This document shows positions 27,879 through 64,000 of a DNA stretch of 64,000 bases, piece after piece. The notes under the pieces were generated by a model. That model was not told the origin of the DNA. It ran no database searches and worked only from the letters and a program-made list of their open reading frames with translations. The first letter of the stretch is position 1, and every line of letters starts with the position of its first letter. Where the stretch lies: positions 10,355-74,354 of the forward strand of contig JAPJRC010000004.1 of NCBI GenBank assembly GCA_030824805.1. Reading direction: 5' to 3'. The DNA is from Micavibrio sp. Lineage in GTDB: Bacteria > Pseudomonadota > Alphaproteobacteria > Micavibrionales > Micavibrionaceae. Position numbers and translations under genes: made by a program.

Positions 27879-27954
27879 GCCCAGGTAGCTCAGTCGGTAG
27901 AGCAAGGGATTGAAAATCCCTGTGTCGGCGGTTCGATTCCGTCCCTGGGCACCA
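27879..27954 (+). tRNA. tRNA-Phe (anticodon GAA); prophage integration target
   Basis: GCCCAGGTAGCTCAGTCGGTAGAGCAAGGGATTGAAAATCCCTGTGTCGGCGGTTCGATTCCGTCCCTGGGCACCA: canonical cloverleaf, anticodon loop TTGAAAA, CCA encoded. Confidence 0.95.
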
Positions 27955-28100
27955 CAAAAATCCCGCTATTATTTAAAAACCCAATCAAATATCATTCGAA
28001 AACAATAGCTTAACTTTATCTATTGCATAAAGCCTTATGCGTGTGCTTTAAAAATGTCACACAAAATGATACACAAACTGTACCACCTTGGCATTTTAGC

Positions 28101-29417
28101 ATGAGCGATTACCTGCACAATCGCAACGGGCGCTATTATTACCGTCGACGCGTTCCTTCAGAGGTGGCTTCATACGACAATCGCGAGACGGTATGCATAT
28201 CCCTTAAAACGAATGACGTGCGAGCCGCCAAACGAAAGGCGGATATCTATAATGAACAGATCGAGGAATATTGGCGATCACTGATAGTGACGGGATCCAC
28301 TTATGAGGAGCAAAGCTACAAGCAGGCTGTAGCAATCGCGCGGGCGCATGGCTTTAATTATAAGTATGCAGCCGACATTGCAAAATCGCCAATACAAGAG
28401 ATTGTCGACCGCGTGCTCCTGGTGCAATCAAACCAGAACCCAGAAATGGTCGCAGGCATCCTTGGCGGTGTGGATCAACCCGAGCTCTTGATCAGTGAGT
28501 GCCTAGATAAATATTGGCCGCTTTGCGTGGATAGGCTTACCAAGAAATCCGATCAACAAATACACCGATGGAAGACTTTAAGAACCACTGTCATGAAGAA
28601 CTTTTTGCGCATCGTCGGTGATAAGCCGATCGCCAAAATAGACAGAAAAGATGTGATGATACTTAAGGAATATTGGGCGCAAAAAATTGCCAAGCGCGAG
28701 CGCTCGACCGACACAGCAAACAAACAGATACGGATTGCTAGAGATATCCTGCAGACTGTTGCTGACCATGCAGGCATGGAACTGGATTTTACGAAGCCTT
28801 TTGCGAAGACCAACTTCAAGCGCTCCACAAACTCACGGCCGCCTTTTGATGCAAAATATGTACAGAATGTAATTTTGGCGCCCGGGGCTCTGCCGACTTT
28901 GAATGATGATTGTAAATATCTCATCTATGCAATGGCTGATCTGGGCGCGCGACCATCCGAGCTTGTGGCGCTAACCCCCAAAGACATCTTCCTGGACGCC
29001 GACATACCATTCATTTGGATCCGGCCTTCTATCGATCGCGAATTAAAAACAGAGCATAGTGAACGTCAAATACCTTTAGTAGGCGCTGCGCTCTTTGCCT
29101 TCAAGAAAATGCCCGATGGCTTCCAACGCTATGCCACCGCCGACAGCGCATCCGCGGCAATCAACAAATACCTTACGACACGGGATTTGCTTCCAACGCC
29201 GCAGCATAGCCTGTACAGTCTTCGCCACACATTCAAAGACAGGTTACGGGATGCCGGCGCCCCGGAAGAAGTGATAGACTCATTGATGGGACACGAGACA
29301 AACCGACCGAAATACGGCCGCGGCCACAACTTGGAAACCAAGAAGAAATGGCTAGAAAAGATCGCCTACAATCCACCTGCCGGCGTTGAATCAATGTCGA
29401 CCCAGCAATTCGTTTAG
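28101..29417 (+). CDS. int: tyrosine-type site-specific integrase
   Basis: C-terminal catalytic R...HxxR...Y region (LRHTFKDRLRDAG...LMGHE) and an N-terminal arm-binding domain; start MSDYLHNRNGRYYYRRRVP. Confidence 0.9.
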   Translation: MSDYLHNRNGRYYYRRRVPSEVASYDNRETVCISLKTNDVRAAKRKADIYNEQIEEYWRSLIVTGSTYEEQSYKQAVAIARAHGFNYKYAADIAKSPIQEIVDRVLLVQSNQNPEMVAGILGGVDQPELLISECLDKYWPLCVDRLTKKSDQQIHRWKTLRTTVMKNFLRIVGDKPIAKIDRKDVMILKEYWAQKIAKRERSTDTANKQIRIARDILQTVADHAGMELDFTKPFAKTNFKRSTNSRPPFDAKYVQNVILAPGALPTLNDDCKYLIYAMADLGARPSELVALTPKDIFLDADIPFIWIRPSIDRELKTEHSERQIPLVGAALFAFKKMPDGFQRYATADSASAAINKYLTTRDLLPTPQHSLYSLRHTFKDRLRDAGAPEEVIDSLMGHETNRPKYGRGHNLETKKKWLEKIAYNPPAGVESMSTQQFV

Positions 29418-30041: not shown

Positions 30042-30692
30042 CTAATAAGAATCGCGCAAAGGCTCGACGTCCTTTACGCCCGTAGAATTCATAGAGGGAT
30101 TCATCGCAGTGATCTCGAACATCGACGCCGGCAGTGTTGGGATTGTCTCAACAGTCGAGCGTCCGGGATCCAGCCAGTCATCCACGTAGTCTGTAATTAT
30201 CGGAACACGGTGATGGTATTGTCGAACAACCCCCTCTGATTCAGTGGTGACGATCGAAAAAGAAACAAGCCACTCATTCTCGATCTGCGTGTGATTGTAA
30301 ATACCTGCCAGGTTGATTAGACTGCCGTCTTTTCGCGAGAATTTGTAAGGCATCTTACGCTTCCGCTCCCCCTCTTCGCGCCACTCGTAGAAAGCTTCGC
30401 AAGGAATTATGCACCGGCGCTTTGCGTAGGGAGTCTTGAAGCTCGACTTTTCAGTGATAGTTTCTGCCCGCGCATTGTGTAAAGTTGGAAGCTTTTCGAG
30501 GTTGCGCACCCACGATGGCACGAGCCCGAAGCGCGCCAAATGCCAGTGCGCGCCGTTTTCGTCGTTGCAAAGGATGGGCGTTATGCCTGTAGGCGGCAGA
30601 TTGGGATCATACTCGAAATTGAAAGCGGGCGAAGAGGCAAAACACTCCAATAGGCGGTTTGCGTTTCTTGGCGATTGAAATCGTGCACACAT
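30042..30692 (-). CDS. SOS-response-associated peptidase (SRAP/YedK family, abasic-site processing)
   Basis: Begins MCARF (catalytic Cys2 of SRAP), blocks PSWVRN...HNARAETI...KRRCIIPCEAFYEW...FSIVTT; start set at MCARF. Confidence 0.85.
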   Translation of the reverse strand: MCARFQSPRNANRLLECFASSPAFNFEYDPNLPPTGITPILCNDENGAHWHLARFGLVPSWVRNLEKLPTLHNARAETITEKSSFKTPYAKRRCIIPCEAFYEWREEGERKRKMPYKFSRKDGSLINLAGIYNHTQIENEWLVSFSIVTTESEGVVRQYHHRVPIITDYVDDWLDPGRSTVETIPTLPASMFEITAMNPSMNSTGVKDVEPLRDSY

Positions 30693-31097
30693 GAACCTCA
30701 ATATGGTGTTTCAATCGATAAAAAGCGAGAGGGATAGCGCCCTTTGGCAGGCGTGCCCTCACTTTTTTGACTGATTAAGGTTTGGCAAACCGGAAAGTTC
30801 CAGACATGCGAAGCTCCTCCTATTGTATGATAAATTACCTCCGTCCCGGACATGCGGGATCTACTGGTTACCAGCGTAGTCAGTAAAGCGAGAGAAGTTC
30901 ATGGTTTAAAGCGTTGGCGCGCTTTAACTAGAATTGGGAAAGCAGATGGTTAATTTCTGATATGCAATTAGTGGAATAAATCTTAAGGATTTGACGATCA
31001 CTTTTCAAGCGGCAGCACTACCATTTTATTGAAAATTAAAAAAATTTCCTATAGGATGATACATTAGACATCCTGAAAGTATAACGGCCAGCCCACC

Positions 31098-50107: not shown

Positions 50108-52102
50108 CTAAGCCAATTGGGAAGCCAGAGAGGGCTTCGTATCTGTTTTTACCGTCACTGCTGTATTGCTTAACATTGTCGCAGGATCCAATAGGTCCAA
50201 CTGAACATCATCCGGTGGACACTCTCGCGTATTACGAAGGGCCTCCCAGTCTTGTTCGGACTTTGTATGCCATCCCAAACGTCTTGCGGCCACTTCAGCG
50301 TACAGCTCCATGTCCAGTATCTCATTCCGGAAGGTCGGTAGTTTTACCCAGATGTAACGCGTTGCTTTAGTCTTTTTGTCGACATCAAGTACACGCGTTT
50401 CGGATGTAAGCTGCTGGAAGTAATTCTCTTCAAGATCCTTAGGAAAGCCACAATATCCCTTTTCCAAAGGGTCTTTCTTATCAAGATTTTTATAAAGGCT
50501 GCCCTTAAGACCTGAAACACCCACAAGCCAGTGACGTTTTTGATGTCTGTTGACCCTCTTCCCGTTATTGCGGCGTTCTTCCTGGACGGGAACCATAGGA
50601 GGGGCAGTGTATTCTTTTGCACCTTTAATGGTAATTACGCGGCTTTCTGGATGCTTTTTAGCCCAGGTCTTAACATCATTCGTTTCAAAGTTTGCATCGA
50701 TCGCAAGCATGTCGAGTCCGATTTGTCTGCCAAACCGGTTTCGCCATTTACGATTCAGCAAACCATCAAGCTGTTTTTGCACTAGTTCGGAAGAGATGTG
50801 TCCTTCAATGACGCCATGTTGAATGGTGAAACGTTGAAGATTGGGGCCCCAACCTTTCACATTCCACTCAACGCGATCGCCTTGCACGTCCAATCCGGCA
50901 GTCAAAATTAAGGCATTTATTGGAACAGTACCGACTTCGTAATCGGATCCGGCCGCGCGTTCGTACAACTCCTTCCAAGGTGGCGCTTCCCCTTTTTGCT
51001 CATAGGGAAGACCAACCGTATCGGTCATAAAGGTTTTTTCTTTTTCTGGGTCCCCGAGAGCCTTAAAATACTCCTCGGCTATGTAAGCCCAGCTGGTCAG
51101 CCTGCTGTAGGCACACCAAATATAGAAACCTTCAACCTTACTGCTGGAATTTTCAGCAACCCAGGCATCATACGCCAGAGTTTGATCAAGCATCCATTCT
51201 TTGTGATGGTGCTCGATAACATGACCACAAGCTGGACAATGAAAATGCGCCTCGGAAAATTCCATGCCCTCGTACAAGGACTTCTTAAAATTCTCCCATT
51301 CCAAAGCATGTTTATGGCCGCAGCCGGGGCAAGGGACATGATATTTTTGCTGGTTCGATCGCTTGTAGTTTTTATCGATCTTGCAAACGCCAAGAATGCT
51401 CGGCGTGCTTACCTTGAAAATCTTCGCCCAATCACCAAAACCTTGCGACCGTTTATCGGCCTGACCCTCGGAATCGCCATGCTCGTTGTCTTCCCATTTG
51501 GAAAGATCGTCTTGCACCTGCCTTGGAACCGAGAGCATGGCCAGTGATGCGGCTGAGTTAGCACCGCTGACGACCATTACCCCACGCGAGTCTGCCCGTT
51601 CCTTTACCAGAAGCGTATTCGATGCATCTCTGCTACGGACCTCTCCGGGAAAAATCTTCCGCAAAGAAGGCGACTGCGTAACAAACGGCTTCCACTTTGT
51701 CCTCACCCAGCGCGCAGCATTCTCCAATGAGGGATGCGTGTACATAAACGGGCAGGGATCTAGATCAATGCTCGCTCCGACAAAAACCTGCGCACAAACT
51801 GTTTTACCAACCTGCGCCGAACCCATCAAAATAACTTCGCGGGCCGGATGAGAAGGCTCCAGACATCTCAAAGGTTTTTTGAAGAATGGAAAGAGGTCTG
51901 AGTTGAAAGCGCCCTGAAATTGGCTTTCTGCGCCAAAGAAAACGTTCTTTTGTGCCCACTCGAGAAAATCAATCGGTGGCGTGGGCTCTAACGCCTTAGC
52001 AAAAGCCGCGTATATTACCTCCTGTGCGTTGGCGAGCCCGTCAATGTGTTGTGACGGAACCTCCGGTGTCTTCAAGGGTTGGTAGTCTTCGCAAAAAATC
52101 AT
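50108..52102 (-). CDS. terminase large subunit, lambda gpA family
   Basis: 664 aa, Walker A GSAQVGKT, gpA-like nuclease region. Confidence 0.9.
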   Translation of the reverse strand: MIFCEDYQPLKTPEVPSQHIDGLANAQEVIYAAFAKALEPTPPIDFLEWAQKNVFFGAESQFQGAFNSDLFPFFKKPLRCLEPSHPAREVILMGSAQVGKTVCAQVFVGASIDLDPCPFMYTHPSLENAARWVRTKWKPFVTQSPSLRKIFPGEVRSRDASNTLLVKERADSRGVMVVSGANSAASLAMLSVPRQVQDDLSKWEDNEHGDSEGQADKRSQGFGDWAKIFKVSTPSILGVCKIDKNYKRSNQQKYHVPCPGCGHKHALEWENFKKSLYEGMEFSEAHFHCPACGHVIEHHHKEWMLDQTLAYDAWVAENSSSKVEGFYIWCAYSRLTSWAYIAEEYFKALGDPEKEKTFMTDTVGLPYEQKGEAPPWKELYERAAGSDYEVGTVPINALILTAGLDVQGDRVEWNVKGWGPNLQRFTIQHGVIEGHISSELVQKQLDGLLNRKWRNRFGRQIGLDMLAIDANFETNDVKTWAKKHPESRVITIKGAKEYTAPPMVPVQEERRNNGKRVNRHQKRHWLVGVSGLKGSLYKNLDKKDPLEKGYCGFPKDLEENYFQQLTSETRVLDVDKKTKATRYIWVKLPTFRNEILDMELYAEVAARRLGWHTKSEQDWEALRNTRECPPDDVQLDLLDPATMLSNTAVTVKTDTKPSLASQLA

Positions 52103-52628
52103 TGCTCATTTGTTTTAGCAGCTTGGAGTTTTCCTCATCTATGACTGCCCGGATCTCACGAACATCTGTCATTGTTGAAAATTTCTCTGCAAGCCGGCGT
52201 GAATTACTTTTAAGCTGATCGCGCAGTATTTGTCCTGCGGCGGACACCGCCTTTGTGACGTCTGGCTTTGCAAGGGTGTCCCCCTTGCGGTGTGCAAGAT
52301 CGAGCTTTTCGTTCTCTAGCTTCGTTTTTTCGCGGTCTGTGCGAACAGCTTCAAAAGTGCCCACATTCGATGCAGGCCTATCGGATGCAGGCTTACCAGA
52401 TCCGCTCATATGCGACATGCTCCTGGAAGGATCGCGGGCATTCCGCAATATCTCGTCAGCCAGGTCAGCATCGATTTTTAAGACGCCGTCGCTGTCCGCC
52501 CTCATGGCAGGCTCCAACCGTGTCTTCATCTGGCCTTTCGACAGGTAGGCTTTGGAAACCTTCTTGTATTTTCCATCGTCCTGAAGAATGCCACGCGCGG
52601 CATATTCCGCCTTGGTCATCAAGGCCAT
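52041..52628 (-). CDS. terminase small subunit (putative)
   Basis: 195-aa basic protein overlapping the terminase start. Confidence 0.55.
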   Translation of the reverse strand: MALMTKAEYAARGILQDDGKYKKVSKAYLSKGQMKTRLEPAMRADSDGVLKIDADLADEILRNARDPSRSMSHMSGSGKPASDRPASNVGTFEAVRTDREKTKLENEKLDLAHRKGDTLAKPDVTKAVSAAGQILRDQLKSNSRRLAEKFSTMTDVREIRAVIDEENSKLLKQMSNDFLRRLPTLEDTGGSVTTH

Positions 52629-52629
52629 G

Positions 52630-52872
52630 TTATTTTCTGGCCTTCAACGGATAGCAACCAAAACAGGTGCAATTATCGCGATGCGACTGTTTCTTGGCGG
52701 TTACGAACTGTCCGGTTTCCTTGTCGCGATGATCGTTCTTCCGCGCCTTCTCCAGATCCGCCTGTGCTTTGGCTAACCGGTCGCGCAGCAGACTGTTTTC
52801 AGTTCGGCACCCAACCGTTTCGGCGATAGCTTTTTCATACGTTCTACGTGAGACAAATGGAAACACAAACAT
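52630..52872 (-). CDS. small hypothetical protein upstream of the terminase genes
   Basis: 80-aa basic ORF with C-terminal CTCFGC; 2-bp gap to terS. Confidence 0.35.
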   Translation of the reverse strand: MFVFPFVSRRTYEKAIAETVGCRTENSLLRDRLAKAQADLEKARKNDHRDKETGQFVTAKKQSHRDNCTCFGCYPLKARK

Positions 52873-53924
52873 TCATTCCTCCAAATGCATTTCAGGACGT
52901 AGGTAGGGAGCCTTGTACAGGTAATCCTGCTGGTCAGAAGTCCAAAATATGACCGTCTTATGCGATTGTCGCCGCCCAGTGCGCTTCTGCTTTGCACAGT
53001 GTTCGAAACACCACCCGTCCATGACTGTTGTCTGCCCCCTGGCCTCAATGGCACTATTGGCTCACAGGTTTCACGACAACAGACAAAGAAGAATTGCGTG
53101 TCTTTCCAAGCCGTCATCACGATGTCGCGTTAGCCAGCATCGGAGCCAGCGTCCCGGTACCTTTCCCGGTTGTCAACGGAACATTTCCCCGCCCAGTCAG
53201 CTTTGGAGCTAGCAACTGACTACCCCCAGATGGCATCCCTCCGAATCTATGCGCTCTCAGCCATCCGTCGGTTCCGGAAAAGCGCATACGAGTTTTAGAA
53301 CGAGGCAGGGCTTGATACCTGCTGAAACTGGCACACCTACCAATCCGGATAAGGTAGGTGCTTGGTCTGGTTTGCGCCGTTGACCCGCGCCGAATACGAG
53401 TGCGGACCAGACTTGTTTCGCTGCGTTAGTCAAAGGGGGCTTCTCTCGATCATCCCCACTATTCCAGTTGCGTTTCCTTCAACGCCGCCCGTCCATGTGT
53501 GCCGTGTTCTGGTTATCAGCAATGGCCGGACGATACCGATACCAAATCTACGAACCATAGGCACGACATACAAAGAAGGATTGCTGTCTCTCCAGCTGTC
53601 ACACCAATCTGATGTTTGACGATACCTGCGCCGATATCGAAGCCTACCGGATCTTCTCCTGAATTAACGCTGCGCTAACTCGCTCACCAAAAATCTTTCG
53701 CAGGGCAACTTTAGAAGACACTACAGAATCTTTTTCATGACAGCCTCCATTGCAAGACTGTGAGTAAACGGTAAACCTCAATTTCATTCTATCAGGTTGA
53801 TAAATTTACGGTTTACCAACCAATCCGGTTAACTCGGTTAACCTCGATTTTAAACCCATTGACTAGAAAACCCCTGCGCGTCGCCGCCCCGCATGCCTAC
53901 CAGAAGGGGGAAGGACCCGTGAAA

Positions 53925-53949
53925 GCCGCAGAAATCTGCGGTTTCTTCT
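53925..53949 (+). terminator. plus-strand hairpin plus T-tract inside the non-coding region
   Basis: GCCGCAG-AAAT-CTGCGGT followed by TTCTTCT. Confidence 0.4.
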
Positions 53950-54117
53950 AGGCTAGGTCGAGGCGGGGAGCGATGCGCAGGGCGTACAGAATCCATAACA
54001 TGACAAAATGCATGCAGGGTGTACGTAGTTGAGGGGAAAGAGAGAGAAATGAAAAAGAGGTGGCCACCGGCACACCTCTTACGAATAAATAATCTATGTC
54101 ATTTCGTGCATGCACGG

Positions 54118-54825
54118 TCAACTATTTTCTTTGTCGATGATGACGTAGCCTTTGTCGGGTGTCGTGTGATCATCTGACGCTATGCCAACCATCGCAGAAC
54201 TCCGCCGTTTTCCTTGGAGCATCCGTTTGTAGTCTTCACCCATTAACTCGAGAGCAGCCTGTACCGTGCCAGTCCAGTAGTCACGAGATTGCGTCCCCAT
54301 TTGATTCGCAAGCGATTTGATATCCCTCTTGAAGCCCACGATATGGACCACCGCAAGAGACATACGCGAAGTCGGGCCACCCAATGCCTTAATGGTAGTA
54401 TGCACGTAATTGCGAGCGTCAGCACTGCGTGTGAGAATATCCTCTATGCCCACACCGCCACCGTGTGTGCCAACCAGATTGGTGGTACGGCAGCGGTCAT
54501 ACCCACATCGTTCGAAATCATCACCGAACGCTCTGCCTGCGTGATATGCGTTGTCCGTGATAACGCCTGCCTCGCGCCACCTGTCCAGCTGATCCTTCAC
54601 ACGATTGCCTTGATCGTTAGCACCGAATGTGGCCCTGACCGTTTCGCGAACGATGGGAGCCTTGGCGTTACCGAAACGCGACACCGGCACACCGTACCGC
54701 GGATCCCTGATATATTCCTCATGGTCGTTCTGGAAGCGTGCCAGCTGGGCCATAAAGCCCAGGCTATGGGCCGCCTGTTTCAAAGATTTCCCAACAACAC
54801 TCACGGCTTGCTCGAGCGTTCTCAT
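54118..54825 (-). CDS. phage hypothetical protein (replication/late-regulation module)
   Basis: Start MRTLEQAV with RBS GGAGGTG; no motif recognised. Confidence 0.6.
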   Translation of the reverse strand: MRTLEQAVSVVGKSLKQAAHSLGFMAQLARFQNDHEEYIRDPRYGVPVSRFGNAKAPIVRETVRATFGANDQGNRVKDQLDRWREAGVITDNAYHAGRAFGDDFERCGYDRCRTTNLVGTHGGGVGIEDILTRSADARNYVHTTIKALGGPTSRMSLAVVHIVGFKRDIKSLANQMGTQSRDYWTGTVQAALELMGEDYKRMLQGKRRSSAMVGIASDDHTTPDKGYVIIDKENS

Positions 54826-55571
54826 GCCACACCTCCGAGGCGTTGCACTTTCGCCGCATGACGGTTGCGCAGGTGGCGTTCGGTCGAGATAAACCAGTTC
54901 CGATGCGCAGTGGCATCCTGCGTGTCCAACCATTTGCCGCGTGCTACCAGTTCCGCATCAAGCTCATCTTCAGAAAACTCTGGGAATTTAGCCCGCCAGG
55001 CTTGGTAATCCCGCTTGGCAAGACGAATGCAGCCCTGCTGGAAGTAGTAATCTTCAGCTGATTTTGAACCGGATATATATATATTATTTATATTTTTCTT
55101 TTTTGGTTCTTTTTTCTTTTTATCCGGCGATCGGTTGTAATTTCTTGAAGCCACTGATTTTTCAAACGAAATTACATCCCCTGTATTTTGTTTAAACAAA
55201 TCGCCCGATATCGTGCTGCCACGCAACTTGGGGTTACCCCCGCCAGCCTTGGCCACGCGGCTACGTGTCGCGGAAAGCTCGGACGCCTGGCGGATCTCAG
55301 GATCAAAATACGCACCACTCTCCCCGTCACGCTCCAGCAACTCGAGGCCGCAAAGATCATTCAGGATACGCGCTACGACCCCTTCATCCAGCCTGCACAG
55401 ATCGGCCACAAAGGTTGCAGTGCAATCCCGCTGGCCGACTCGCAACCACCCACCCGATCCGATTGCTATCATGCGCAGCTTGAACAATACCAGTTCAGCA
55501 ATGTGATCCAGCGCACAGATGCGAAGATCCCCCATCCACTCTGTCGGGTCGATGGTTAATTTACGTTTCAT
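54822..55571 (-). CDS. phage replication-associated protein (DUF1376-like)
   Basis: 249 aa immediately downstream of dnaB with a Lys-rich linker. Confidence 0.5.
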   Translation of the reverse strand: MKRKLTIDPTEWMGDLRICALDHIAELVLFKLRMIAIGSGGWLRVGQRDCTATFVADLCRLDEGVVARILNDLCGLELLERDGESGAYFDPEIRQASELSATRSRVAKAGGGNPKLRGSTISGDLFKQNTGDVISFEKSVASRNYNRSPDKKKKEPKKKNINNIYISGSKSAEDYYFQQGCIRLAKRDYQAWRAKFPEFSEDELDAELVARGKWLDTQDATAHRNWFISTERHLRNRHAAKVQRLGGVA

Positions 55572-55582
55572 CCGTTCTCTCC

Positions 55583-57004
55583 TTACGGTTGGTTATGATT
55601 TTCGTCGTAGAAATATTGACGCACCCCATCAAAGCGACATCGTACGGATGCAATCTCGCCTTGGCGGAATTTGCCAATAATAATTTCAGCTGCGCCCTCT
55701 TCCGCATGAACAAGCTCTGTCCATGCCTGATATCGGTCGTTGAATTTGTCCTGACTTTCGCTGGCGCGACGGTGTGGCTCTTCCTTTTTAAGGTAGTACT
55801 CCGGCCGGTATGGGAACATGATCAAGTCAGCGTCTTGTTCTATGGCGCCGGAATCGCGCAGGTCGGCGAGCGAGGGTCGCTTATCTTCACGGTTCTCAAC
55901 GCTGCGGCTAAGCTGGCACAACAATGCAACGTGAACATTCAGCTCTTTTGCCATTGCCTTCAGACGTTGCGTAATCTCTTCGAGCTGATGCACTTTGTTG
56001 GCGTTGTTGTTTGTGGGCCTGATAAGCCCAAGATAATCGACAACAACCATATCCAATCCGCCATATCGTCGTTTCATTCGCTTGGCACGGGAAGCAATTT
56101 GCCCTGCTGTAAGCGACCCAGTTTCATCTAGCAAGACAGGCAATTTTTTTAGCTCTTGTTGTGCCTGACGCAACGCCACCATATGCTCAGGGGACAGCGC
56201 CTTGGTCCTGCGCATCATGCCCATGGGAAGGCCCGTTTTACGCGCGAGAAAACGAAGGCCAAGTTGTGCATTCTGCATCTCCAGCGATTGGAACAGCACC
56301 CTATGCCCCGCACGCGCTGCATTGACGGAAATGCTCAAAGCCAGAGCGGTCTTGCCCATCGATGGGCGCGCCGCAATGATGCTCAGCTCTCCGCGTTCAA
56401 ATCCGCAAATTTTTTCGTCGAGCGCTGCTATGCCGGAAGCAATGCCGGTGACTTCCCCGCGTTGCGCACGATCGATCATATCCATTGTTTGTTCAAGCCC
56501 GTCCCCAAGCTCAACGGCTTCCTTTTCCGCCGCGCCGCGATCTGAAAGCGCATAGATCAATGTCTCCGCCTCGGACACGATGTCCCGTGTTGGTCGATCA
56601 ATTTCGTAATTCTGCGCTTGATCGATCATAGCGAAAGCGGTGGTGATAATATTTCTGCGCGTATAATAATCGACAAGCTGTCGTGCATAATCACGGGCGG
56701 AATTGAGACGCGGCACGTATGTCGCCAGATCCACGATATATTTTCCGCCGCCCACGGAATCCAGCGCACCGTCTGCCTCGAAATACTTTCGCACCGTCAT
56801 GGCTGCCGCGTCACCTGTGGCGGCATAGCTTTTGACGATCACATCATAAATCTTACCATGTGTTGGATGGGAGAAGTGCTCTGCGCGCACATGTTCTGCT
56901 ACAGCTTCGATCTGCCGGTTATCGAGCATCATCATGCCCAGCAAGCCATGCTCACAGTCCAAATTATGCGGCAAATGTTCGCTATCAATTCTTGTCATTA
57001 CCAC
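55583..57004 (-). CDS. dnaB: replicative DNA helicase, DnaB family
   Basis: N-terminal DnaB domain (LPHNLDCEHGLLGMMM), RecA core with Walker A (ARPSMGKTALAL), Walker B LVVVDYLGLI. Confidence 0.95.
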   Translation of the reverse strand: MVMTRIDSEHLPHNLDCEHGLLGMMMLDNRQIEAVAEHVRAEHFSHPTHGKIYDVIVKSYAATGDAAAMTVRKYFEADGALDSVGGGKYIVDLATYVPRLNSARDYARQLVDYYTRRNIITTAFAMIDQAQNYEIDRPTRDIVSEAETLIYALSDRGAAEKEAVELGDGLEQTMDMIDRAQRGEVTGIASGIAALDEKICGFERGELSIIAARPSMGKTALALSISVNAARAGHRVLFQSLEMQNAQLGLRFLARKTGLPMGMMRRTKALSPEHMVALRQAQQELKKLPVLLDETGSLTAGQIASRAKRMKRRYGGLDMVVVDYLGLIRPTNNNANKVHQLEEITQRLKAMAKELNVHVALLCQLSRSVENREDKRPSLADLRDSGAIEQDADLIMFPYRPEYYLKKEEPHRRASESQDKFNDRYQAWTELVHAEEGAAEIIIGKFRQGEIASVRCRFDGVRQYFYDENHNQP

Positions 57005-57441
57005 ATTTTCCCATTCGGCATGACATGCGTTTGCTTAACTTTGACGATCTTGCGGCTGACGACAGGAACATGCTCGGCGCAGTATGTTTTCCCACGCTCT
57101 GTACGCTCACCACAGAAACCAAAACCCGGCTCGCCGGGGGAACCAAATGAGTAACGACACATGCATGGTCCAAGGTCCAGCAATGATGTCAATGCTTCGG
57201 GACGAAATGGGGGTTTCAGCGGTATCTTTCTCCTTTTCTGGCAAGTCTTTCCATTACTGCCGGGCTTGTTGCCGCGCGCGCGCGGTTCAGTCACCGTTTT
57301 TAGTTTTAGACGATGCACCTTCCCCATTATCGCGCTGCGCGTTTTTCCCATCAGTTGGACAATCTCGGGCGACGTTTTCCCAGCGCTCCATAGCGCTTTC
57401 AATGTTTCTATTTCTTCATCAGTCCAAGAGTTGCTCTTCAT
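56998..57441 (-). CDS. gcrA: GcrA cell-cycle regulator family protein (phage-encoded)
   Basis: N-terminal WTDEEIETLKALWSAGKTSPEIVQLMGKTRSAIMGKVHRLKL and C-terminal Cys-containing GcrA domain (CQ..PL....FCG....YC.EH). Confidence 0.8.
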   Translation of the reverse strand: MKSNSWTDEEIETLKALWSAGKTSPEIVQLMGKTRSAIMGKVHRLKLKTVTEPRARGNKPGSNGKTCQKRRKIPLKPPFRPEALTSLLDLGPCMCRYSFGSPGEPGFGFCGERTERGKTYCAEHVPVVSRKIVKVKQTHVMPNGKMW

Positions 57442-61421: not shown

Positions 61422-62690
61422 TCAGCATCTCACCACCGGCAGTTCCTTAATATTCGTCGTAAAACATGGGCTCTTGCGGTCGAATTTGGTCCGCCATGTT
61501 GGCCTTACCCCCGCCGCCAGTGGTGCGATGCTCCCCCGCCCATACCGGTGGTTTATCCGGTCCATGGCCTGCATAAGATCGTCTGCCTTCTCCCGGTTGC
61601 CATATCCGTCCAGAAGTGCCGGTTGGTACTGGCTGATCGGTGAAAGATCCATCGTCATGATCCCACCTTTCATGTACCGCCTGCCCCGCTCCCAGCAATG
61701 TTGAACGACAGACTTGGCCGCGCCGACAATACGAATGGTATCGTTCGTGGTTTCAGGGAAATTGACCGTCATGGCGCTGTATTTGTAATCGGGCTCGTGC
61801 GGCGAGGTATGGAAGAACACCACCACGCTGTTGGCGCCCAGATTATCCTTCCGAAGCTTTTCCCCCATCCGTACGGCGTAAAAAGCCATAGCCTCTTCCA
61901 GACCGTCTTTCGTCGTGATGCGCTCGCCGAACATCCGGGAAACGGTGCAGCCCTTCCGGATCGGCGGAACGTCTTCCAGCGAGAGGCAGGACAATCCCCG
62001 CAGCTCGTATACGAGACGCTCCCCCACGACGGTCATCAGCTTGCGGGCCGATGTGGTCGGGAAGCTGATCAGGTCGTCGACATATTCAATCCCGAGCTTG
62101 TTCAGCTTGGCCGTCGACGCGAGCCCTATTCCCCACACTTCGGACACCGGAACAACCTCCGTCACCTCTTTGAATGTTTTCGGGTTTGTCAGGTCGCACA
62201 CGCCTTTGAATTCGGGCACATGCTTTGCCGTCCAGTTGGCAAGCTTTGCCAGCGTCTTTGTCGGGCCAATACCCACGCAGGTCGGAATGCCTGTCCATTG
62301 TTTTACTGTGTCCTTAAGCTCGGTTCCGAACTTGACCAGGTCGAGCCCCTTGAAGGCCGTAAGATCGAGAAAGCTTTCATCGATCGAGTAGGTTTCGATA
62401 TCGGGACAGAATTGCCGGTAGATCTCGTTCATCCGTGCGGACATATCGCCATAGAGCGTATAATTCGATGAGAACACCGCCACGTTGTTTCGCTTGCACA
62501 GGTCGCGGATTTTAAAGAACGGATCACCCATTTTTATACCGACGGCCTTTGCCTCCGCGGTTCGGGCCACGGCGCAGCCATCATTGTTCGACAGGACGAT
62601 AACGGGCCTCTTCTCCAGCTTTGGATCGAACACGCGCTCGCAGGAGCAGTAAAAGGAATTGCCATCGATCAGCGCGAAGACCCTGCTCAT
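61422..62690 (-). CDS. umuC: Y-family DNA polymerase V catalytic subunit
   Basis: [23 protein letters not shown]..., ImpB/MucB/UmuC family. Confidence 0.9.
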
Positions 62691-63130
62691 CGTTGCACCA
62701 GCATATGGATGTTGCAGCGGACCACGCCCCATATCTCGATATCAGATTCATCCGATGTGTTGAACTCGGGAAACTCCCTGTTATCGAAGGCAAGATGCGG
62801 GCGGCCCTTGATGTATTTGAGGCGCTTAAGGGATCTCTCCCCGTTTACCACCGCGATGACGATATCGCCGTTCTGAGGCTTGAGGCTTCGATCGATGACT
62901 AGGATATCGCCGCTGTATATCCCCGCATCTTTCATGGAATGGCCGATCACCCGCCAGAGAAACGTGGCCGGCTTGTTCCGGATCAGCTCGGTTTCAAGAT
63001 TGATGGGCTCGTCCAGATAATCACCCGCGGGGGATGGAAATCCGGCGCAGATGCTTTCCTGCACCATAGGCAGGACAAGGCCGCTGGAATTGCTTGGCCT
63101 GTTTTTCGTTGTCGGGATAAATGAGAACAT
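62687..63130 (-). CDS. umuD: UmuD-like LexA-family S24 peptidase
   Basis: Cleavage-site region [12 protein letters not shown], Ser/Lys dyad (GHSMKDAG...KRLK); start ambiguous (63067, 63130 or 63157); ATGA overlap with umuC. Confidence 0.85.
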
Positions 63131-63707: not shown

Positions 63708-64000
63708 AGTTTCTGTCAGACATTTGGAACGATATCGAAGAGCGCATAATAACCCAATGCGCAGTTCTCCGACGTCGCCTGATTCTACAATATTGCAGAT
63801 CTGCCCCGACCTTTACGCTACGACACATGCTGGAAGCGATGGGTACGGAAGAGGCGCAGAAATCGCTGGTCTATATCGGGGCGTTACAACAGCATAGGCC
63901 CGATTACCCCTTCTCTGATCTTGCAAGGTTTCAATCCCAAATCATGCATGTGGCGGAAAATCATAGCCATCGCTGGCTGATGGAAGAAGCACTGGCGCAA
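63698..64000 (+). CDS. hypothetical protein, 5-prime part (runs off the window)
   Basis: Open frame MRLKFLSDIWNDIEERIITQCAVLRRRL... with no stop before the window end; overlaps the previous gene. Confidence 0.4.
   Translation, partial: MRLKFLSDIWNDIEERIITQCAVLRRRLILQYCRSAPTFTLRHMLEAMGTEEAQKSLVYIGALQQHRPDYPFSDLARFQSQIMHVAENHSHRWLMEEALAQ

Follow-up and report, generated by a model that had tools for sequence, protein, structure and literature searches.

What does a gap of 1.25 kb contain when it lies in a prophage exactly where the replication genes end and the packaging genes begin? The gap occupies positions 52,873-54,117 of the window, i.e., the whole 64-kb stretch of DNA that was analysed, and is bounded by an 80-aa ORF (52,630-52,872, minus strand) and a 271-aa ORF (54,118-54,933, minus strand). 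The flanking genes are all located on the minus strand and follow, in the direction of transcription, the order DnaB-type helicase, 249-aa ORF, 271-aa ORF, gap, 80-aa ORF, terS, gpA-type TerL and lambda-family portal. A preliminary description had found no credible ORF in this region and took it for a structured stretch that could hold a cos site, a late promoter with an antitermination target RNA, or an uncharacterised non-coding RNA. The reading favoured here, at a probability of about 0.8, is that the gap is the junction between the right arm and the left arm of a temperate, lambda-like phage that resides here as a prophage, with its functional content all on the minus strand. As judged from sequence, about 190 bp of it (53,764-53,949) is a lambda-type cos site. 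This cos content is an ordinary, known kind of feature and no new RNA; the proposal of a cos site is thereby upheld, but for these 190 bp only and not for the gap at large.

Gene neighbourhood of the gap

The genes that frame the gap and define its position are the following.

55,583-57,004, minus strand: DnaB-type helicase gene
52,630-52,872, minus strand: 80-aa ORF, homologue of the 96-aa first gene of relative L004
52,041-52,628, minus strand: terminase small subunit TerS (phrog_57, E 7.6e-15)
50,108-52,102, minus strand: gpA-type TerL (PF05876, E 6e-55; PF20454, E 3e-68)

TerS is presumed to be the reader of cosB, and the gpA-type TerL presumably serves both as the cosN nuclease and as the packaging ATPase. 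TerS has no Pfam match and is not a member of the Pfam Nu1 family. The arrangement by which lambda-like phages are recognised, a gpA-type TerL gene with an adjacent small-subunit gene upstream, is present, and gpW is also found downstream of the cos site. The gap thus joins the right-arm end to the packaging genes, at the position expected of a lambda-type cos. The 80-aa ORF shares its N-terminus with the first gene of L004 (MFVFPFVSRRTYE versus MFRTPFVSRKMYD; pairwise E 1.2e-5) and is annotated as a gene on the Logan contig L001. This contig (SRR21973335, equivalent to window 52,931-49,003) is the only other assembly with the exact phage, and its sequence breaks off at window 52,931, in the non-coding spacer that precedes the 80-aa ORF and about 60 nt ahead of that gene.

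The wider annotation is that of a prophage: 27.9-29.4 kb holds a tRNA-Phe gene and an integrase, the minus strand carries genes for tail and head, and regulators of the HTH type are located at 58.9-60.7 kb. The tRNA-Phe gene directly precedes the tyrosine-integrase gene (DUF6538 and Phage_integrase), and this site (27,879-29,417) is probably one end of the prophage. No att-type repeat of at least 12 nt from the tRNA-Phe region occurs elsewhere within the 64-kb window, so the other end may lie beyond position 64,000. A gene for an SOS-response-associated peptidase (SRAP; 30,042-30,701) adjoins the integrase, and a Y-family polymerase gene (UmuC/ImpB-like; 61,422-62,732) lies near the opposite side of the prophage.

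The 249-aa and 271-aa proteins encoded between DnaB and cos (54,118-55,571), hereafter p249 and p271, have no match in Pfam or PHROGs. Homologues occur at the equivalent position in L006 (1,060-2,579) and L011 (5,232-6,631), two relatives with 57-64% TerL identity, and p249/p271 is a conserved pair of unknown proteins that ends the replication operon. The longest ORFs of the two genes overlap by 112 nt (54,822-54,933), so the 271-aa gene probably begins further downstream than its longest ORF does. Exact-protein look-ups with these two longest ORFs returned no contig on record.

The predicted cos site and its counterparts in other phages

Feiss et al. place lambda, 21, N15, phi80 and gifsy-1 in a 'lambda-like cohesive end' group, defined by its cohesive-end and cosQ features (PMC4669245). 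The virion DNA of these phages ends in 12-base 5' single-stranded extensions, of which bp 7-12 commonly vary, and cosQ, a conserved 7-bp element about 30 bp upstream of the left end, is highly conserved (PMC4669245). The same elements can be located in the gap, in the same order towards terS as in lambda.

53,906-53,919, minus strand: cosQ block CGGGTCCTTCCCCC, conserved in L011, L171, L006, L094, L213, lambda and phi2LM21
53,878-53,889, minus strand: predicted 12-nt cosN cohesive end GGGCGGCGACGC, with conserved flanks at 53,863-53,895
53,764-53,843, minus strand: cosB, a cluster of putative TerS-binding repeats (GGTWWACC)

The cosQ heptamer GGGTCCT (53,912-53,918) is identical to that of lambda and is kept in all cos-spanning relatives. 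It begins 29 nt before the predicted end, compared with 30 nt in lambda, i.e., the distance from cosQ to the nick is 1 nt shorter in the window. The cosN element follows about 22 bp beyond cosQ in minus-strand order, and its pattern occurs once in the 64-kb window. Its cohesive end GGGCGGCGACGC equals lambda GGGCGGCGACCT at 10 of the 12 positions; the two mismatches, bp 11 and bp 12, belong to the right half, which is the variable one. Over a longer stretch, positions 53,925-53,866 of the window (minus strand) can be aligned to -35 to +23 of the lambda cos junction, with a score of 24.5, compared with 10.6 +/- 1.6 for shuffled sequences. In this alignment, CTTTCACGGGTCCTTCCCCC...ATGCG/GGGCGGCGACGCGCAGGGGTTTTC of the window faces CTTTACGGGTCCTTTCCGG...TTACG/GGGCGGCGACCTCGCGGGTTTTC of lambda, where the 12 bases after the slash are the lambda cohesive end. 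An nhmmer cos profile, built from relatives alone with the window left out, gives a single match in the 64-kb window (53,924-53,763, minus strand, E 1.1e-29). The nick positions that these alignments suggest would leave a 12-nt 5' overhang.

On the terS side of cosN, the cosB repeats are located, in plus-strand coordinates, as follows.

53,836-53,843: GGTTAACC
53,827-53,833: GGTTAAC
53,810-53,817: GGTTTACC
53,770-53,777: GGTAAACC
53,764-53,769: GTAAAC

Of the 25 GGTWWAC/GTWWACC sites of the 64-kb window, seven fall within the 80 bp of cosB. The tandem CGGTTAAC-T-CGGTTAAC element and the repeated motif ACCAATCCGG, both pointed out in the preliminary description, were located at 53,826-53,842 and at 53,339-53,348 and 53,819-53,828, respectively, and the tandem belongs to cosB together with the second copy of the motif. 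Cos sites of the 'complex' kind have an IHF site (I1) between inverted R sites (PMC4669245). In the window, the inverted GGTAAACC/GGTTTACC pair flanks an A/T-rich spacer of 32 bp that carries a partial IHF-like TATCAA (53,797-53,802); the full IHF consensus WATCAANNNNTTR has no match in cosB.

In the lambda model, TerS binds cosB, TerL nicks cosN, packaging runs towards terS, and cosQ is used at the next cos (PMC4669245). Transposed to the present phage, this model would have the GGTWWACC repeats of cosB occupied by dimers of TerS, with possible help from a DNA-bending protein of the host acting on the A/T-rich spacer. The bound TerS would direct the gpA-type TerL to cosN, to nick the two strands with a 12-nt stagger and so generate the 5' cohesive ends GGGCGGCGACGC. 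Packaging would then run towards terS, and cosQ would be needed to recognise and cut the next cos when packaging ends. We infer the binding of TerS to the cosB repeats by analogy with lambda.

The likeness to lambda extends to the presence of repeated, putative TerS-type sites in both orientations about an A/T-rich spacer, and to the gpA-type TerL, gpW and lambda-type portal located downstream. The two systems nevertheless differ in several respects. The host here is an alphaproteobacterium, and TerL is very distant (all matches among cultured phages are below 60% identity, the best being 40%). The R-site motif is GGTWWACC and not that of lambda, and TerS is without a Nu1 match. After the predicted nick, the first gene begins at 1,017 nt and terS at 1,261 nt, compared with 190 nt in lambda. 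The closest cultured phage is Sinorhizobium phage phi2LM21 (TerL 40% identical), which also has a gpA-type terminase. It carries CGCGGGTCCTTCC followed by short repeats in the gap upstream of its terS and matches the cos profile at E 2e-5. It differs in that its cosN part is not recognisably alike, its repeats are of the GCCTAAAG type, and its upstream genes are others, including one for a NusG-like protein.

Closer counterparts are found among uncultured alphaproteobacterial prophages and viral contigs. TerL relatives were retrieved at 46-77% identity; a contig scan with TerL alone gave no match, and two TerS homologues are found in the protein collection of 5.8 billion proteins. The only segment of the gap that matches these relatives is 53,736-53,934 (minus strand). 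L004/L005, L002, L006, L011, L171 and L012 are alike in their cosQ/cosN block and GTTAACC-type repeats, as well as in the synteny DnaB, p249, p271, cos, terS, terL. In L006 and L011, where the synteny DnaB-p249-p271 is retained, the block lies between the p271 homologue and terS, and the same cosB motif recurs in L004, L002, L011, L171 and L012. The lack of conservation in homologous prophages, which the preliminary description had named as a refuting result, applies to 52,873-53,720 but not to the cos core. In the relatives, cosN is separated by 55-180 nt from the start of the first ORF and by 640-970 nt from that of TerL, the latter distance being 1,787 nt in the window; none of them has the spacer of about 0.85 kb or the repeat of about 170 nt described below.

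Contigs of three different related phages (L004/L005, L012 and L002) start within the conserved block at the predicted nick. L004 (Logan) and L012 (JGI) start at the identical alignment column, with GGGCGGCG... and GGTCAGCG..., respectively. The L004 phage was also assembled independently as L005, which begins 4 nt further on; L002 begins exactly 12 nt beyond the L004/L012 column. As indications of the physical termini of the phage studied here, these contig starts are circumstantial.

The cosB repeats vary between lineages. They are of the GTTAACC/GTAAACC type in close relatives versus the GCTAAAG/GTTTAG type in distant ones, while cosQ is constant. Repeats of the distant type are located at 5,330-5,400 in L094, 5,200-5,265 in L213 and 1,790-1,850 in L253 (phi2LM21). 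The holders of GCTAAAG-type repeats are the relatives at 46-47% TerL identity and phi2LM21, which carry them at the equivalent place. A change of the repeats with the TerS lineage is the behaviour that would be expected of a TerS-specific cosB, and the cosB series across lineages possibly represents a natural series of packaging specificities. The lambda cosQ heptamer and most of the cohesive end are thus kept across very distant gpA-terminase phages, and the cosB repeats change with TerS. The comparison provides predicted genome ends and a predicted packaging mode (cos, with 12-nt 5' overhangs) for this uncultured alphaproteobacterial prophage group, and such conservation of cos is useful for annotating prophage termini in metagenomes.

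Predicted terminator and hairpins around the proposed cos site

Folding was assessed by z-scores, in sliding windows of 120 nt and, for local elements, against dinucleotide shuffles. Across 52,873-53,880, the sliding windows give z-scores between -2.0 and +1.8 on both strands, which does not bear out the description of the region as structured throughout. Only four local elements, among them the strong hairpins that had been reported, fold beyond dinucleotide shuffles, and most of the region is at chance level.

54,035-54,080, minus strand: predicted intrinsic terminator, stem AAGAGGTG/CACCTCTT followed by a TTTTCATTTCTCTCTCTTTCC tail, 38 nt past the stop of the 271-aa ORF
53,965-53,982: inverted near-copy of the cosN sequence, GGGGAGCGATGCGCAGGG, which can pair with 53,872-53,889 (18 nt, 83% complementary)
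53,923-53,949, both strands: hairpin GCCGCAGA/TCTGCGGC, immediately upstream of cosQ, with a T-run on the plus-strand side
53,334-53,412, plus strand: two adjacent hairpins (an 8-bp stem, then a longer GGTCTGG...CCAGAC stem), followed by TTGTTTCG

The first element (54,080-54,035) combines an 8-bp outer stem, 11 predicted pairs in total and a T-rich tail, the hallmarks by which intrinsic terminators are called. The segment 54,030-54,100 folds on the minus strand at -15.9 kcal/mol (z -3.0), and the 120-nt window 54,000-54,119 reaches z -4.7. It is read as a predicted rho-independent terminator closing the replication/early operon. Located after the 271-aa gene, it would shut the replication operon upstream of cos.

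The terminator-like hairpin of the preliminary description was found at 53,923-53,949, just upstream of cosQ. The segment 53,915-53,955 folds with z-scores of -3.2 and -3.3 on the two strands, and L011 and L006 carry a hairpin at the equivalent place that is made of different bases. The near-copy of cosN lies 75 nt upstream of cosN itself, so that cosQ and the hairpin are enclosed in an 18-bp inverted repeat; the segment 53,860-53,990 folds on the minus strand with z -5.0. In the relatives, C-rich stretches complementary to cosN occur at varying positions, with no clearly conserved partner.

The remaining element is the hairpin pair at 53,334-53,412. What had been described as a 9-bp stem is present, but it measures 8 bp (CACCTACC/GGTAGGTG at 53,334-53,341/53,353-53,360) and reads GCACACCTACC, not GCACCTACC. 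The nested stem directly after it was recovered as GTCTGG/CCAGAC at 53,365-53,370/53,407-53,412. The segment 53,325-53,420 folds at -37.5 kcal/mol, and its z-score is -3.2 for the plus and -2.1 for the minus strand. Read in plus orientation, the pair beats 200 of 200 shuffles, and no part of the cos reading explains it.

The spacer before the first gene and its possible origins

Between cosB and the 80-aa ORF, the gap contains about 0.85 kb that are not accounted for by the cos site.

52,873-53,720: lineage-specific non-coding spacer, about 0.85 kb
53,007-53,166: diverged direct repeat of about 170 nt, copy 1
53,481-53,659: diverged direct repeat of about 170 nt, copy 2
53,721-53,748, minus strand: orphan RBS (GGAGG) and ATG, which open a 5-codon ORF only

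The spacer has no match among 250 fetched related loci, no further copy in the 64-kb window and no match in GenBank phages, and the core of the 170-nt repeat is absent from IMG/VR. The reading as a dispersed repeat or a MITE was rejected on this lack of other copies in the window, in GenBank phages and, for the repeat core, in IMG/VR. Searches against proteins, Pfam, PHROGs and Rfam gave no match to the spacer beyond chance level. The orphan RBS-ATG aligns with the start of the first gene of L004 (alignment A1, columns 213-226), which is located right after cosB in that phage, so that the extra 0.85 kb or so before the first gene is found only in the lineage studied here.

The two copies of about 170 nt are related by local alignment (score 28.5, versus 12.9 +/- 1.8 for shuffled sequences). 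In addition, positions 53,335-53,352 form a collinear 18-nt match (16 of 18 positions) with the cosB segment 53,815-53,832. Together, the repeats and the collinear match suggest a tandem unit of about 480 bp, and the global alignment of the two units scores 35.8, versus 7.9 +/- 3.2 when shuffled. A second, decayed cos inside the spacer was sought with the cos profile, which finds none. The case for a tandem duplication consequently rests on one repeat of about 170 nt and one collinear match of 18 nt. The spacer probably arose by tandem duplication of this cos-proximal unit, or by an insertion where the first gene has its start codon, followed by decay that left the orphan RBS-ATG behind cosB. 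We infer that it is best read as decayed, non-coding filler that lacks a function, and it is probably transcribed through as the leader of the packaging operon. Because close relatives are few (two among 5.8 billion proteins), missing conservation cannot prove missing function. As it stands, the spacer opens no new question and is a minor curiosity unless expression data say otherwise.

An unlikely alternative to decayed filler is that a regulatory RNA of the phage is encoded by the spacer, in a single copy or in two, either as a minus-strand leader of the late operon or antitermination target, or as two antisense sRNAs of the plus strand. In the latter case, each sRNA would end at a hairpin, the first at 53,334-53,412 and the second at the cosB palindrome or at 53,923-53,949. 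The fold of the hairpin pair with its following TTGTTTCG (53,325-53,420, z -3.2 on the plus strand) agrees with such an end. Moreover, the terminator upstream of cos implies that a promoter for the packaging genes is located somewhere downstream of it, and RNAalifold pairs two conserved blocks of the 170-nt copies on the minus strand, with one compensatory change. That consensus fold is, however, weak (-16.9 kcal/mol over 197 columns, from two sequences only), and windows of 120 nt over both repeat copies give z-scores of -1.2 to +1.5. A scan for sigma-70-like promoters found no sites on either strand. At the gathering threshold, Rfam 15 detects only two tRNAs in the whole window, both outside the gap; at E<=5, the best matches in 52,600-54,300 have E values of 0.18-0.57, which is at chance level and far below gathering scores. 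The relatives also package their DNA and express the same operon without the spacer. The Rfam scan that had been advised thus brought up no relevant family. Neither of the two RNA proposals of the preliminary description, the late promoter with an antitermination target and the uncharacterised non-coding RNA, finds support: Rfam and the promoter scan are negative, most of the region folds at chance level, and homologous prophages lack the non-cos part.

Equally unlikely is the view that protein genes, one or several, have decayed into the spacer, for example those for a moron or an HNH endonuclease, the latter being known to occur beside cos in other phages. The GC content of the spacer (0.49-0.57) resembles that of the neighbouring genes, and copy 2 of the repeat forms a single plus-frame ORF of 85 aa; in copy 1, the corresponding ORF is divided between two frames. 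Yet the two copies resemble each other less in translation than as DNA, which gives no hint of purifying selection, and their alignment contains single-base indels. Compared with Pfam and PHROGs at E<=1, the six frames of 52,872-53,790 yield only PF14866, a chance-level match (E 0.35; 11.7 bits, where the cut-off is 27). The concatenated six frames have no match at E<=0.1 among 5.8 billion proteins, and tblastn with the neighbouring phage proteins reveals no recognisable remnant in the gap. The ORFs of the gap are all of 87 aa or less, apart from one of 115 aa that overlaps the 80-aa gene. The absence of a credible ORF from 52,873-54,117 is thus confirmed, and the frameshifted pseudogene that had been named as a possible explanation was sought and not found.

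It is quite improbable that the spacer consists of two diverged copies of an undescribed phage element of about 170 nt, inserted between cosB and the packaging genes, whether a regulatory RNA or a protein-binding DNA module, that controls late-operon expression or packaging in this lineage only. As for the conserved block itself, one could imagine a replication origin or regulator-binding region common to these phages instead of a packaging site, since the block adjoins the replication module (DnaB and two conserved unknown proteins) and contains short repeats, but this is barely credible given that it matches lambda cosQ and cosN, that the contigs of relatives end exactly at it, and that its repeats, which face terS, are not the same from one TerS lineage to another.

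Under the preferred reading of the gap as a cos-bearing arm junction, a few minor features remain to be mentioned. GANTC sites (GcrA/CcrM-type) number three in the gap, without enrichment. A direct repeat of 21 nt, TACAGAATC...CATGACA (17 of 21 positions identical), is located at 53,722-53,742 and 53,985-54,005 and brackets the cos site; each copy holds a GANTC site, and the match is only marginally beyond chance. The phage also encodes a GcrA-like protein, at 56,998-57,441.
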